From Aulosira sp. ZfuVER01 (GTDB lineage: Bacteria; Cyanobacteriota; Cyanobacteriia; Cyanobacteriales; Nostocaceae), in the NCBI GenBank assembly GCA_034530615.2, contig JAVRCV020000006.1:32001-96000 (forward strand): 64,000 nt of DNA. The letters are read 5' to 3'. Under the pieces are notes generated by a model. The model had not been told where the DNA came from and searched no databases. It saw nothing but the letters and a program-made list of their open reading frames with translations. The position numbers and the translations under genes are program-made. Of this stretch, positions 13,063-31,812 are shown one piece after another. The number at the start of each line of letters is the position of its first letter. Position 1 is the stretch's first letter.

Positions 13063-13467
13063 ATGGGTTCAAGTGAAGAATATTTCATTGTCCGCCGCAA
13101 GCAGATTGCGCGGCGACAAAAGATTTTAACAATAGTGTCAATCGTATCATTTTTAGGTTCCATCGCCTTTTCAGCGATTCCGGCGATACAACAGGCTATT
13201 AATGCACCTAAGGCAGTAGTTGCATCTCCAGAGAATTCATTAGAAAAACAGGCAAAAGGTTTTGAAACTGTTTTAGAACGCGAACCAAATAATTTGGTGG
13301 CGTTGGAAGGGTTGGTAAATGTGCGACTAAATTTGAAAGATATTCAGGGTGCAATTCAACCTTTAGAAAAGTTAGTGAAGTTACGCCCTGAACGAAAAGA
13401 GTACAAAGTTCTTTTAGAGAGTTTGAAAAAAGAACAAGGTAAGAGCGATTCCCCGACAAATAACTAG
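13063..13467 (+). CDS. Membrane-anchored TPR protein (first gene upstream of the pse operon)
   Basis: One TM segment ([16 protein letters not shown]) followed by TPR-like [15 protein letters not shown]...LEKLVKLRP. Confidence 0.75.
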
Positions 13468-13528
13468 CCCAAGTCTAATTAATACTCTTTGGCAAAAATT
13501 TAATTCTGAGATTACTTAGTAATACACA

Positions 13529-14518
13529 ATGTTTAACAGTAAAACTATTTTAATCACTGGCGGTACAGGCTCCTTCGGCAAGCAATTTGTAAAAACGATT
13601 CTCAGCCGATATCAGCCTCAGAAAGTCATAGTTTATTCCCGGGATGAACTCAAGCAGTATGAAATGGTGCAAGAGTTTAATGCACCAGTGATGCGCTATT
13701 TCATTGGAGATGTGCGCGATCGCGATCGCTTGAGTATGGCTATGCGAGGCGTGGATTATGTAGTTCATGCTGCTGCACTCAAGCATATTCCTGCGGCTGA
13801 GTATAACCCGATGGAATGTATTAAAACCAATATTCATGGTGCGAATAATGTCATTGATGTTGCTATTGAGCAACAAGTGGAAAAAGTAATTGCGCTTTCA
13901 ACAGATAAAGCAGTCAATCCAATTAATCTCTATGGTGCAATCAAGCTAGCTGCTGATAAACTCTTTGTTGCAGCTAACAATATTGTTGGCACAATGAAAA
14001 CTCGATTTGCTGTGGTTCGCTACGGTAATGTTGTCGGTTCAAGAGGCTCAGTTGTACCTTTTTTTCAAAAGCTAATTGCTGAAAAATCTCCAGAAATTCC
14101 AATTACTGACCCACGGATGACTCGCTTTTGGATTACTCTCCAACAGTGCGTTGATTTAGTTTTTAATAGTTTTGAACGGATGCAAGGCGGAGAAATATTT
14201 GTCCCTAAAATTCCTTCAATGAAAATTACTGATTTAGCCGAAACACTTGCACCAGGAGTTCCAACTAAAATTGTTGGCATTAGACCAGGAGAAAAACTCC
14301 ATGAAGCCATGTTTTCTGCTGAATCTTCACATTTAGCCTTGGAATTTGCTGATCATTATGTAATTAAACCGACTATTGAATATAGTAATGCTGTTGATTA
14401 TACCTGTAACACCCTTGGTGAAAAAGGAGCCTCTGTTCCCGAAGGGTTTGAGTATAGCTCTGAGATCAATACAGAATGGTTAAAAGGATTTCAACTACTG
14501 GATATGCTAAAGCAATGA
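13529..14518 (+). CDS. pseB: UDP-GlcNAc 4,6-dehydratase (inverting) PseB
   Basis: [27 protein letters not shown], YGxx[19 protein letters not shown] and [10 protein letters not shown] motifs. Confidence 0.93.
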
Positions 14519-28831: not shown

Positions 28832-31060
28832 CTATTTTCCTTCCAGATACCTTTGCCACATCTGTTCGTAAGCCTTCTCCATTTCACGGGTAAACTGCTT
28901 ACCATTCCACAGCGGTGCAGTGTGCCGAGACTGACGTAATTGCCCAGAAATTTGCTGTCTTAAAGAAGCATCTTTACCCAAGCGTACGCCCCATTCTATA
29001 TACTCTTCATCTGTCCAAGCTATGCCTTCGGTTATACCAGCATTCACCATCATGGTGTAGCTATTACGTGCTGCGAATTGTTCACCAACTCTCGTTACTA
29101 AAGGGATACCCATCCATAATGTTTCTAGGGTTGTTGTTGCTCCATTGTAAGGATATGTATCTAATACAATATCAGCAATGCCCAAGTTAGCACGATGAAC
29201 TGACTCTAGAGAGACTTGCGGTAAAAATCGTAACCTAGATATGTCCACACCCTCCTCTTCAGCAATTTGATAAAAAAAGCGTTTAATTGCTTCTTCTTCA
29301 GAAAGTCCCTTAATCAAAAAGTAGCTGTTAGGTACTTGTTTGATAATTTGCATTTGCCACCTAGTTGTTTCTGGATGGCGTTTATATCCTCTTTGTGCGC
29401 TTAGATATACAACAGCATCTTCAGGGATATTTAAGTCCTCTCTACGAAGAGTTGGTACACCTACCTCAAAACCATCTACTGCTATGTAAGTTTGCGATAA
29501 TCGCCAGATTTTCTCTGTGTAGTAATCTTGTGCATCATCTGGTAATACATAGGGGTCGGCAATAAAGTAATCAATTGCAGGTATGCCTGAAGCATCCCAA
29601 CCTAGCCAAGTAACTTGGATAGGTGCTGGCTTGAGTGCCATCACTTCGCTAGTAATATCCAAAGTAATGCTATCAAGGTCAATTAAAATATCGATTTCAT
29701 CTTGATATATTTGTTCAGCAATCTCTAAGCCATTCATACCTAGCTTATGAACATTACCTGCATTTTGTACATACCAATCTTGAAGAAAATCATTGACTAA
29801 TTGATAATTAACAAAATATGTATGAATCTCAAATTTGTCTTTATCATGATGCTGAAATAACCAGCGAGCTAGCCAACCAACTGAATGATTTCTTAAAGCG
29901 TAAGATACATAACCAATTTTTAATTTTTTAGTGGAATGTTTTAAATCTTGACTATTATTTTTGTAATAAGCTTTTTTTCCTTGTGATTGAGCAAAATCTT
30001 GAACATCAGTATTGAAAATTTTAGCTATTTGATTCTGAATTCTCCGGAAACTAGCAGGATTATCTTTAATGTGAGGTATAGCAAAAGATGGTGTTAGCAA
30101 CCGTAGTATTCTGCCCTCTTCTAAGGCAATTGGTTGGGCTTGGATAAACTGTTGAAATACTGCTTCCAATTCTTGGCAAGTTTCACATATCTCCTGCCAA
30201 TATCCACCTGCTGACATTAGTCCTCTTAACAGCAAATGGAGGGCGAAAATTTTATCAGCTAAACTTTCTGATAGCGAATAACATAACTTAGCTGTCTCTA
30301 TACCCTGAGAATAATTACGAGCATCTTGATAAAAAACTGCTAAATGTCTTAAAATCTCTACATTCTCTGGTTCTAATTTTAAATGCAATTTAAGAAGCTC
30401 TGCTGCTAGCAAAGGTTGCCGTAAAGTATGCCCAATTGTCATAGCAGTAGTAAGGATTAGGCAAAAGCAGTGATAAGTATCAGAAAAGTGAGGTAAACAA
30501 GCTTCTACTAAATTTAGATTGAATGGATGTAAAGGCGCAGTATTTAAAAAATCTTCTAAAACTTGTATTAACAATTCGGCATTGATATTTGCGCTTTCTA
30601 GCTCGTTTAAATTTTCAATTATTCCCCATTCATGCAAGTCTTTAATATCTTCAAATTTTTCAAGTTTGAGGCAAAGTCGCAATATGTGAAGTAAATTATT
30701 AATGTCAATAGGATTAACTTCACGCATATGCTGGCGGATTAACCAGGCTAGGGAATATTCTCCCAATACTTCGCGTTTTTCAGCTTCTATTTGCAAAAAT
30801 TGAAATAGTTCGTTTGTCCAAATTTCTAACTGCTCTTCATCTGCCTCTGTCATTGGCAGCATCCACGTCATTTGGGCTTCAGCTTCTTGTCCTTGTAATA
30901 GCAATAGTAATCCTAAATGCCAATAATAAAAAATAGCATTTGGTTCTATTACTATTGCTTTTTCATATAACTGTGCTGCTTGCAGATATTTTTCTTGGAT
31001 AAAGTATTGTTCAGCTTGATTCTGCCAATTCTGTATATTAGTAATCATTGTATTTTTCAT
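28832..31060 (-). CDS. ogtA: O-GlcNAc transferase / SPINDLY-like GT41 with TPRs (OgtA-like)
   Basis: N-terminal TPRs; KLKIGYVS...HSVGW, DILIDL, PAPIQVTWLG and DTYPYNGATTTLETLWMGIP motifs; directly downstream of pilA as in Nostoc punctiforme. Start uncertain (31072/31060/31048). Confidence 0.88.
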   Translation of the reverse strand: MKNTMITNIQNWQNQAEQYFIQEKYLQAAQLYEKAIVIEPNAIFYYWHLGLLLLLQGQEAEAQMTWMLPMTEADEEQLEIWTNELFQFLQIEAEKREVLGEYSLAWLIRQHMREVNPIDINNLLHILRLCLKLEKFEDIKDLHEWGIIENLNELESANINAELLIQVLEDFLNTAPLHPFNLNLVEACLPHFSDTYHCFCLILTTAMTIGHTLRQPLLAAELLKLHLKLEPENVEILRHLAVFYQDARNYSQGIETAKLCYSLSESLADKIFALHLLLRGLMSAGGYWQEICETCQELEAVFQQFIQAQPIALEEGRILRLLTPSFAIPHIKDNPASFRRIQNQIAKIFNTDVQDFAQSQGKKAYYKNNSQDLKHSTKKLKIGYVSYALRNHSVGWLARWLFQHHDKDKFEIHTYFVNYQLVNDFLQDWYVQNAGNVHKLGMNGLEIAEQIYQDEIDILIDLDSITLDITSEVMALKPAPIQVTWLGWDASGIPAIDYFIADPYVLPDDAQDYYTEKIWRLSQTYIAVDGFEVGVPTLRREDLNIPEDAVVYLSAQRGYKRHPETTRWQMQIIKQVPNSYFLIKGLSEEEAIKRFFYQIAEEEGVDISRLRFLPQVSLESVHRANLGIADIVLDTYPYNGATTTLETLWMGIPLVTRVGEQFAARNSYTMMVNAGITEGIAWTDEEYIEWGVRLGKDASLRQQISGQLRQSRHTAPLWNGKQFTREMEKAYEQMWQRYLEGK

Positions 31061-31236
31061 AGGTAATTGCATGGACAATATAACTCTGAAGCTCACATAA
31101 CGGAAATAAAGTGGATAGAAGCATCTACCCACTTTAAAAACTACTAATTTAGTTCAATACAAACTACACGAAAAATTACTTTGCTATGAAGTGGCTTAGA
31201 CAAACAATACTTTCACGTAGTAAGTGACTGTTTCAC

Positions 31237-31812
31237 TTATTTCAAAGAGACAAAGTTACTAGGACATGAGGGTGAATTAGTGGTGCTGTCGAAATTGCCA
31301 CTAACACTATAGGCAACTACATCTGAACCACTATTAACTCTTGCTGCGGTCGCTTCACATAAAGTAGCTACGGTAGTAGCTTCACTGGTAGAAGCTTGCG
31401 TTGTTACACCCACATTACCTATATAAGATTTGAGAGGTGCATTGGCAAGTACTGTTGCTGCTTGGTTAGTTACTTGGCTGGCGTTAGTAGAACCACCACC
31501 AGAAATTGAGTACTTGTAATTTGTGGTTTGTGTGGCAATACCAAGACCTAGTTTACCAAAGTCAGCTTGAGCAGCAAATTGGTTCTGTTCTAAGTAATAA
31601 GCTTGCTGAGCGCGGTTCATGGAACCTACGTAGGTTTTAGCTTCAGACTGCTTGGCTTTGTTGGCTTGGTTCAAGAAAGAAGGTAGTGCAATAGCAGACA
31701 AAATACCGATAATGATGATTACTACCAACAATTCAATAAGTGTGAAACCTTCGTTTTCTTGTTTTTTGCCGAGAATGTGTTGGATAAATTTAGCTTTCAG
31801 TTCGGTTTTCAT
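31237..31812 (-). CDS. pilA: Type IV major pilin PilA
   Basis: Class III signal MKTELKAKFIQHILGKKQENEG|FTLIELLVVIIIIGILSAIALPSF, NRAQQAYYLE, and a C-terminal Cys pair. Confidence 0.93.
   Translation of the reverse strand: MKTELKAKFIQHILGKKQENEGFTLIELLVVIIIIGILSAIALPSFLNQANKAKQSEAKTYVGSMNRAQQAYYLEQNQFAAQADFGKLGLGIATQTTNYKYSISGGGSTNASQVTNQAATVLANAPLKSYIGNVGVTTQASTSEATTVATLCEATAARVNSGSDVVAYSVSGNFDSTTNSPSCPSNFVSLK

Follow-up and report, generated by a model that had tools for sequence, protein, structure and literature searches.

A 64,000-nucleotide stretch of the genome of the cyanobacterium Aulosira sp. ZfuVER01 (assembly GCA_034530615.2, contig JAVRCV020000006.1, positions 32,001 to 96,000; hereafter the window) carries an operon for pseudaminic acid (Pse) followed by the gene for a giant multi-domain glycosyltransferase (GT), which is convergent with ogtA and pilA. 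The block is best explained as a hormogonium-induced, exchangeable pilin-glycosylation island in which OgtA would prime the pilin PilA with N-acetylglucosamine (GlcNAc) and the giant enzyme would extend the chain and cap it with Pse, a reading to which we assign a probability of roughly 0.68. An initial annotation of this DNA had proposed a nonulosonate-capped glycan on PilA, and for this locus type the proposal is supported on genomic and transcriptional grounds.

Pathway genes beside ogtA and pilA

The genes lie in the order pseB, pseC, an SpsF-type cytidylyltransferase gene, wbuX, hisH, wbuZ, a pseG-GNAT fusion, pseI and the gene for the 2,196-residue glycosyltransferase (Table 1). Every gene of the initial annotation was found, in the position and order given there, and PseB, PseC, WbuX, HisH, WbuZ, PseG and PseI all exceeded curated NCBIfam cut-offs. 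Two labels held in part: the cytidylyltransferase, which we take to be SpsF-type from its N-terminal motif, matched CTP_transf_3 but scored far below the PseF cut-off, and in the gene labelled pseG/H the PseG part passed its cut-off but the C-terminal GNAT domain fell short of that for PseH. The genome is 8.0 Mb and 99.99% complete; pseI is its sole strong NeuB-family gene, the remaining PF03102 matches being partial (37-39 bits), and further hisH and hisF genes are present on contigs C36 and C71, respectively. By the chemistry of the established pathways, PseB, PseC, PseG-GNAT, PseI and the cytidylyltransferase would make CMP-pseudaminic acid, and WbuX, HisH and WbuZ would probably convert one acetamido group to an acetamidino group, presumably on Pse itself.

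OgtA resembles human O-GlcNAc transferase (OGT; E 4e-52), and its His389 and Lys557 are invariant in 36 of 36 sequences. A TPR-GT41 protein encoded right behind the major pilin gene, with the catalytic His and Lys retained, characterizes the Ogt/OgtA-PilA system of Synechococcus elongatus and Nostoc punctiforme, and the same arrangement and residues were found here. Passages of PMC9306852 report that the S. elongatus Ogt (Synpcc7942_0051), which has no secretion signals, is required for GlcNAc on PilA and that ogt and pilA adjoin in 77 of 201 genomes; the adjacency likewise appears in passages of PMC13759059. By extension, OgtA would add GlcNAc to Ser/Thr residues of PilA in the cytoplasm. The mature PilA chain has 169 residues, 37 of them Ser/Thr, and in 60 pilins the median Ser/Thr content was 19%, against 11.6% over all open reading frames (ORFs).

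No initiating phosphoglycosyltransferase, flippase or ABC exporter, or ligase was found among the Pfam matches of the block, in line with the absence of Maf and export genes stated in the initial annotation. A flagellin N-terminal domain was likewise not found in the genome, which agrees with a non-flagellated host, nor was a Maf/MptE-like domain, the latter in a search whose control matched archaea only and which is therefore weak for bacterial Maf. Because the head of the pilin finally sits in the periplasm, chain assembly has to precede insertion; the modified prepilin would then be inserted and assembled into a strain-specific pilus coat.

A giant glycosyltransferase with a KpsC-like N-terminal module

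Pfam identified GT4, GT2 and GT41 domains in the giant enzyme and no family across its first 790 residues. Homologue alignments start near residue 13 (ATG at 21996). Residues 1-547 had 69 homologues among 8,000 scored candidates, and in an alignment of the query with 54 of these (55 rows) E310, R344, H346, P347, S406 and E411 were invariant; the Capsule_synth family PF05159 matched 15 of the 55 rows. Comparison of the sequence with the PDB gave nothing significant, and the profile reached KpsC only at E 0.15. When the structural model was compared with 48,161 chains (VIA), KpsC was the best match (6mgb, Z 14.5, root-mean-square deviation (rmsd) 4.3 over 287 residues), the other KpsC module (6mgd) scored Z 14.1, CalG1 and CalG4 tied KpsC in Z but with an rmsd of about 10, and WbbB of GT99 scored Z 11.2. 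Foldseek ranked generic GT-B proteins top and gave its best TM-score to KpsC.

The N-terminal module has both a KpsC-like fold and the (K/R)xHP motif, which are common to KpsC/KpsS (GT107), WbbB (GT99), KpsS1 (GT118) and KrkA (GT140). Passages of PMC12887879 describe this motif as binding CMP in sialyl- and 3-deoxy-D-manno-octulosonate (Kdo) transferases, and KpsS1, a characterized Pse transferase, as a relative of KpsC. Because of its fold and motif the module is a candidate Pse transferase, located inside the giant glycosyltransferase that the initial annotation had singled out. It would add Pse, or the acetamidino form, as the cap; we infer the order of addition and the acceptors. The QXXXD nucleophile motif of GT99, GT107 and GT140 was not among the conserved columns of the 55-row alignment. 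The consensus after the strand is FTSSExE, an invariant SxExE that places E310 at what would be the equivalent position, and given the missing QXXXD the module is called KpsC-like and not a member of GT107 or GT118. It differs further from the KpsC, KpsS, WbbB, KpsS1 and KrkA enzymes in sequence (10-18% identity), in its fusion into a GT41 protein and in a nearly invariant His and four Cys near the N-terminus (His32 and Cys55, 62, 79 and 82; window 22053-22205, residues 32-82), a possible metal site that is absent from the descriptions of KpsC in the passages available. Among 47 genomes there were three close homologues of the module (51-54%), each within about 1 kb downstream of pseI. Elsewhere (G217, locus L046; G350, locus L048), distant KpsS-like genes stand three or four in tandem, convergent with a pse operon.

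Residues 548-795 form a module with no similarity to the GT2 module, and it co-occurs with the KpsS-like module in G008, G013, G128, G148 and G245. The GT41 module retains Lys1864 at the catalytic position, and E1693-T1694 replaces the His of NH(S/P), both states being invariant in 23 of 23 aligned homologues; no TPR match was found in the protein, so the canonical OGT features, N-terminal TPRs and the NH(S/P) His, are both missing. Two GT41 domains are present, as initially annotated, but only OgtA keeps the NH(S/P) His. Lacking that His and TPRs, the module of the giant enzyme more plausibly extends chains than serves as a further protein-targeting OGT. In the proposed pathway the enzyme would extend the GlcNAc without a lipid carrier, its GT41-like, GT2 and GT4 modules adding the inner sugars.

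At the C-terminus lies a domain here called G6, for which each Pfam family matched at most one of 42 members. Its model was closest to the C-domain of XcOGT (Z 8.4, rmsd 3.2 over 119 residues), tied with streptococcal Gap1/Asp1. With a profile made from 42 copies, nearly all out of pilA-linked loci, G6 was present in 32 of 40 relatives, and in 27 of these it lies no more than 30 kb from the best pilA; by copies the figure is 32 of 41. Cassettes built of separate enzymes contain multiple G6 carriers (three in G009, four in G067), a pattern suggestive of a docking tag; G6 would be a non-catalytic domain, for docking or for acceptor binding, that holds enzymes on the pilin pathway. The ESM Atlas returned only unnamed clusters for G6 and for a second N-terminal family (the lead being DUF6716 at 0.86). 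An additional G6-TPR-GT41 gene of about 703 amino acids with no pilin or sugar genes nearby is present in the genome of the window (L064:9578-11686, contig C36), and frames of about 717-740 amino acids with a G6 match occur away from pilA in G003, G006, G013, G026 and G031.

Cassette exchange and expression in relatives

The 20-kb stretches behind pilA were compared in 14 same-genus genomes and 44 others. All 14 same-genus genomes kept the frame tprTM-cassette-GT-ogtA-pilA with a G6-bearing transferase, and all showed the swapped sugar cassettes beside pilA-ogtA for which the initial annotation had suggested a search. The constant first gene, tprTM, which is not part of the pse pathway and stood at the cassette edge in each of the 14, encodes a small membrane-anchored TPR-like protein whose TPR domain would be periplasmic by the positive-inside rule. 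Identity to the window is high in the flanks (stk 90-95%, seen in 12 genomes; ntrC 96-98%, seen in seven), and in 12 of the 14 genomes ogtA is 47-52% and pilA 53-64% identical to the genes of the window. In a quick OgtA tree the genus fell into several deep clades, two of them in common with other genera.

The cassettes themselves differ in sugar content. Pse cassettes are present in G008, G011 and G013, and a legionaminic acid cassette in G006 (LegB, LegC, NeuB and NeuC above cut-off). G001 has an FdtA/DegT/formyltransferase cassette, G003 and G005 have CDP-sugar sets, and G009, G010, G012 and G014 have transferases and methyltransferases only. Aminoethylphosphonate cassettes were identified in G007 (PepM, Ppd and an aminotransferase above cut-off) and, by similarity, in G002, with a PepM remnant in G004; these phosphonate genes in the pilA slot (L026:12200-16061, L028 and L029:6700-7164) point to a possible phosphonate-modified pilin glycan. 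The nearest relative, G008, is a mosaic, with pseB, pseC and pseI 91, 77 and 92% identical to those of the window, a different middle without wbuX, and giant-enzyme modules that are, in order, 85, 69, 67, 92, 91 and 93% identical. Recombination between conserved flanks would swap the sugar genes and capping modules, and often pilA-ogtA as well.

The N-terminal module changes with the sugar. A NeuB gene is present in 13 of the 58 pilA neighbourhoods and absent from 45; the KpsS-like module occurs in five of the 13 and in none of the 45. Three other N-terminal modules occupy seven more of the NeuB-positive loci and none of the 45, only the latter count being a test, as these modules were defined from NeuB-positive loci. 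The legionaminic acid island has a weakly polysialyltransferase-like module with KGHP (PF07388, E 0.008), four islands have an unnamed N-terminal family behind pseI, and a third module is found in G044 and G049. The exception is G003, whose NeuB-like gene fell below both cut-offs. An unnamed family of about 320 amino acids (L031:7419-8378) is encoded right behind pseI in at least 10 fetched loci and has unnamed Atlas clusters in Bacteroidota and others; it is a second candidate Pse transferase family.

The same cytoplasmic, OGT-primed pathway might have as its main acceptors other proteins that hormogonia secrete or display at the surface (minor pilins, PEP-CTERM or S-layer-like proteins), with PilA carrying GlcNAc only. 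G6/GT41 enzymes and pse genes do occur away from pilA in G348, G267, G087, G216, G245 and G046, the G6-TPR-GT41 gene of contig C36 has no nearby pilin, and passages of PMC12188702 report PEP-CTERM proteins, possibly glycosylated, among those that hormogonia express. PilA as acceptor is favoured by the position of G6 enzymes near pilA in 27 of the 32 relatives and by the joint divergence of pilA and ogtA with the cassette. In G348 (L044, L042), uvrD follows pilA-ogtA with no cassette between, and a different contig carries a pse operon together with G6-bearing transferases; the island has probably been relocated, and the empty slot fits such a move. We regard other acceptors as unlikely, while ranking them first among the alternatives to PilA capping.

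A two-part promoter element precedes tprTM (Table 1). The pattern preceded 34 of 40 tprTM homologues and 2 of 913 other ORFs of the same loci, a count made on the very sequences from which it was derived; genome-wide it gave 35 matches, near the 17-25 of shuffled sequences, so conservation alone counts for it. By eye, the element equals the promoter of Npun_R0691 in the cluster-12 J-Box list for sigJ (PMC6495340, Data Set S2). Its J-Box-like part has two mismatches to GGGAATACT, and a strict search with that motif allowing one mismatch found it upstream of 2 of 42 tprTM, 3 of 61 ogtA and 8 of 68 pilA genes. Passages of PMC2532724 describe a GGTAA -12 element in Synechocystis as SigF-type. A SigF-driven cassette promoter was considered and rejected because the N. 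punctiforme cassette is still induced in a sigF mutant. A 291-residue tprTM paralogue (L065:9512-10384) lacks the conserved promoter element and might be related to the SigF-regulated periplasmic sll0837 of Synechocystis in those passages.

Expression was taken from published N. punctiforme RNA-seq (rows of PMC6495340 Data Set S1), that is, from another strain than that of the window, with synteny judged from annotation and promoter; these two features put the host of the window near Nostoc. The order there is kinase R0693, R0691, CapD, DegT, acylneuraminate cytidylyltransferase, GT28, methyltransferase, NeuB-domain R0684, further genes, GT R0678, ogtA F0677, pilA F0676 and thioredoxin reductase R0672; R0684 was the sole N-acetylneuraminic acid synthase annotation in the rows searched. 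Six hours into hormogonium induction, transcripts of all 14 genes R0678-R0691 had increased 11-fold or more (R0690 from 15 to 641, R0684 from 6 to 178, R0678 from 4 to 161, and ogtA from 10 to 320), and the flanking genes stayed flat (70 to 64; 90 to 137). In the sigJ mutant the 6-h values were 37, 27, 33 and 7, respectively. The link to motility made in the initial annotation is supported by this syntenic cassette, which is hormogonium-induced and, as ogtA is, linked to SigJ. The same profile argues against a constitutive role in lipopolysaccharide (LPS) and is compatible with hormogonium polysaccharide. Two methyltransferase genes upstream of N. punctiforme pilA, Npun_F0673 and F0675, likewise show strong induction in hormogonia and dependence on SigJ; the window has nothing equivalent between ntrC and pilA.

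The cassette could therefore instead decorate hormogonium polysaccharide or another lipid-linked hormogonium glycan, exported by unlinked machinery, its proximity to pilA reflecting a common role in motility. Hormogonium induction fits this as well, KpsC/KpsS/WbbB-type folds act on capsule and O-antigen, and five Wzy_C/O-antigen-ligase genes lie above cut-off elsewhere in the genome. Phosphonate and methylated deoxysugars are frequent polysaccharide decorations. Set against this, homologues of HpsE and HpsO are on contigs other than that of the cassette, the transferases are fused to GT41 and to an OGT-like half-domain, by crude hydropathy a single intra-cassette ORF reached three hydrophobic windows (a 1,768-residue GT in G463), and hormogonium polysaccharide is reported with fucose and possibly galactose in passages of PMC9239167. 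On balance a polysaccharide target appears improbable.

The hairpin between the convergent genes has the bidirectional form that was initially annotated and may act as a terminator, although the scan counted 17 terminator-like sites in all, a number in the chance range (mean 12.9, standard deviation 4.0). Past it, an imperfect palindromic stretch (28700-28810) resembles, by eye, a small dispersed repeat element. Between stk and tprTM lies an ORF of 72 amino acids (11929-12147, minus strand), and Npun_F0692 in the equivalent position is highly and constitutively expressed. At 41540-46366 (minus strand), a low-GC stretch contains a DUF5615-DUF433 pair next to genes for a TPR protein and an AAA ATPase, a possible toxin-antitoxin or defence insertion.

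Table 1. Coordinates in the window of the genes, protein modules and DNA elements discussed (pLDDT, predicted local distance difference test; bit scores with model cut-offs)
Feature	Position	Strand	Details
Cassette promoter	12979..13008	+	TG(A/T)TA, 14-15 nt, then J-Box-like GGGTATCCT at 13000-13008
tprTM	13063..13467	+	134 residues; basic N-terminus, one hydrophobic helix, TPR-like domain; TPR_19 E 0.0014, below cut-off
pseB, UDP-GlcNAc 4,6-dehydratase (inverting)	13529..14518	+	TIGR03589 537 bits, cut-off 408
pseC, aminotransferase	14476..15681	+	TIGR03588 564 bits, cut-off 424
Cytidylyltransferase, presumed CMP-Pse synthetase	15678..16427	+	PF02348 122 bits; PseF model TIGR03584 37 bits, cut-off 206
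wbuX/pseA-like N-acetyl-sugar amidotransferase	16469..17683	+	TIGR03573 333 bits, cut-off 203
hisH-like glutaminase subunit (wbuY)	17691..18308	+	TIGR01855 222 bits, cut-off 105
wbuZ/hisF2, glycosyl amidation-associated	18317..19075	+	TIGR03572 306 bits, cut-off 300
pseG hydrolase fused to GNAT acetyltransferase (presumed PseH role)	19187..20677	+	PseG TIGR03590 234 bits, cut-off 154; PseH TIGR03585 43 bits, cut-off 93; PF13302
pseI, pseudaminic acid synthase	20698..21753	+	TIGR03586 511 bits, cut-off 340
Giant multi-domain glycosyltransferase	21960..28550	+	2,196 residues; Pfam GT4, GT2, GT41
KpsS/KpsC-like GT-B module, candidate CMP-Pse transferase	22008..23519	+	Model pLDDT 93.5; invariant E310, R344-x-H346-P347, S406, E411
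Module of about 250 residues travelling with the KpsS-like module	23601..24344	+	Residues 548-795; no Pfam match
GT4 module	24387..25484	+	PF13439, PF00534
GT2 module	25542..26159	+	PF00535, PF10111
Divergent GT41 module	26217..28094	+	PF13844; top PDB match SPINDLY, E 3.5e-20
G6 domain, lone GT-B C-terminal Rossmann half	28116..28530	+	About 135-140 residues; model pLDDT 84
Hairpin, bidirectional-terminator-like	28596..28625		12 pairs; A run before, T run after
ogtA, TPR-GT41 O-GlcNAc transferase homologue	28832..31051 (ORF openable to 31132)	-	PF13844 182 bits, TPR_11
pilA, major type IV pilin	31237..31812	-	PF07963 (N_methyl), PF16734 (Pilin_GH); best pilin match of the genome
pilA promoter, GGGTAAG element	31855..31886	-	Two-part layout as in the cassette promoter

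Other pse clusters, known systems and implications

Of 400 genomes from the order, 78 gave a PseI-like match, which in 34 was full-length and at 72% or above. In 5 of these 34, from four families, pseI lies within 30 kb of pilA, against 0.4 expected; in 150 genomes of the family NeuB is present in 20, and within 30 kb of ogtA in seven of those. The initial annotation had named pse clusters unlinked to pilA-ogtA in related genomes as evidence against its proposal, and such clusters are what 29 of the 34 genomes show, the linkage holding in the other five. Pse evidently serves several glycans in the phylum, and because most cyanobacterial pse clusters lie elsewhere the pilus reading is limited to this locus type. 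GT41 or G6 enzymes were encoded in six of 29 unlinked loci examined, which came from 27 of the 29 unlinked genomes and include two second copies. One genome (G216, L057:11880-14111) encodes, behind pseI and before a GT4-GT41 protein, a GT2-TPR-GT29 protein whose GT29 match is to the eukaryote-type sialyltransferases (E 8e-11). A class of NeuB-containing proteins of about 750 amino acids is present in many cyanobacteria, and four genomes of the family with this class alone have no ogtA link.

The block might also be an ordinary pse cluster for LPS or extracellular polysaccharide that sits in a recombination hot spot by pilA with no functional tie to the pilus. The prevalence of unlinked clusters, several with polysaccharide-export neighbours, would fit, as would the mobility shown by the GC content of the giant GT gene and ogtA (0.37 against 0.41 for the genome). 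Such a cluster would hardly account for an N. punctiforme counterpart that is nearly silent in vegetative cells (values of 0-38 for R0678-R0690 in the PMC6495340 rows), for a capping module that varies with the sugar and is joined to domains linked to pilA, or for the conserved promoter, and we consider it very improbable.

Several observations weigh against Pse-capping of PilA. The 29 genomes with unlinked pseI are the majority, although many of their assemblies are fragmented, and at least 9 of the 29 unlinked loci carry multi-pass membrane, ABC, WecA-like or ligase genes; in a more distant genome set, again with many fragmented assemblies, G6 was pilA-linked in just 13 of 27. The association of capping modules with NeuB draws on non-independent kin, and 8 of the 13 NeuB-positive loci were picked for having NeuB. 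The GT41 module of the giant enzyme departs from canonical OGTs in its His and TPRs, and passages of PMC12887879 describe the KpsS-like fold in enzymes for capsule and O-antigen. R0678, R0679 and R0684 fall outside the assigned sigJ regulon and recover by 18 h in the sigJ mutant (PMC6495340, same rows), and expression cannot separate the pilin from hormogonium polysaccharide, which is equally hormogonium-induced. S. elongatus PilA binds succinyl-wheat germ agglutinin according to passages of PMC9306852, which fits exposed GlcNAc over a long capped chain. A soluble pathway must, moreover, do its work ahead of the pilin head's passage through the inner membrane, and the block has no dedicated exporter.

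The island would extend known kinds, combining OGT-primed pilin glycosylation with a swappable, nonulosonate-capping set of genes. The published Ogt/OgtA-PilA system is a lone GlcNAc-adding enzyme, whereas here a convergent operon adds a nonulosonate pathway and a five-module extender whose content is swapped among strains. In Campylobacter and Helicobacter a motility filament, flagellin, is O-glycosylated with Pse in the cytoplasm. Their pathway (PseB, C, H, G, I, F and A, with Maf) shares the CMP-Pse families and a PseA-like amidotransferase with the block; no flagellin or Maf domain was found here, and the predicted product is a Pse-capped oligosaccharide, not Pse directly on Ser/Thr. Flagellin glycosylation islands are also strain-variable and lie beside the substrate gene. 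In streptococcal serine-rich repeat adhesins, GtfA/B prime with O-GlcNAc and Gly enzymes extend in the cytoplasm before export by an accessory Sec system. G6 resembles Asp1/Gap1 of that system in fold; the primer here is of GT41 instead of GT4, the substrate is a prepilin, and the block has no SecA2/SecY2. Pse is known on Pseudomonas pilin. Its presence on type IV pili is not new outside cyanobacteria: passages of PMC7203116 describe on Ser of Thermus thermophilus type IV pili the acetamidino-Pse-capped O-glycan Pse5Am7Ac-hexose-N-acetylhexosamine-N-acetylhexosamine, which agrees with the chain length predicted here and with the amidination genes of the block. Thermus belongs to a different phylum and those passages contain no biosynthetic route, whereas this locus points to a GT41-primed soluble one.

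The initial annotation knew of no description of such a system in cyanobacteria. A search of full-text literature, incomplete in coverage, likewise found no nonulosonate cassette, giant transferase or swappable island by a cyanobacterial pilA; hormogonium papers may treat these genes. A pse cluster is noted in Thermosynechococcus, with no function given in the passages available (PMC7005997). pilA and the R0678-R069x tags were unmatched in passages of PMC12507012 (phage resistance), PMC9239167 (DnaK), PMC12188702 (CrtB) and 10.1101/2021.10.27.465970 (hornwort symbiosis).

Taken more broadly, and at about even odds, filamentous cyanobacteria would have a pilus 'serotype' locus: a lipid-carrier-free, OGT-primed assembly line, tagged by an unnamed OGT-derived domain, that builds multi-sugar chains on cytoplasmic prepilin, which would cross the membrane post-translationally once glycosylated. 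Its caps (pseudaminic or legionaminic acid, aminoethylphosphonate, formylated or methylated deoxysugars) would be swappable, each being paired with a dedicated N-terminal transferase module; at least two uncharacterized nonulosonate transferase families would be among these modules. The pilus reading can be put to the test immediately in N. punctiforme, which is genetically tractable and has a syntenic, hormogonium-induced cassette (R0678-R0691).

If the reading is true, hormogonia, the motile, plant-infecting stage of Nostoc, would wear a strain-specific, sialic-acid-like pilus coat, a direct candidate for variation in phage receptors, for kin and host recognition and for adhesion. It would take OGT-type chemistry beyond a single GlcNAc to oligosaccharides with caps, pose the problem of inserting a prepilin that is heavily glycosylated, and provide new candidates for nonulosonate transferases, few of which have been characterized.

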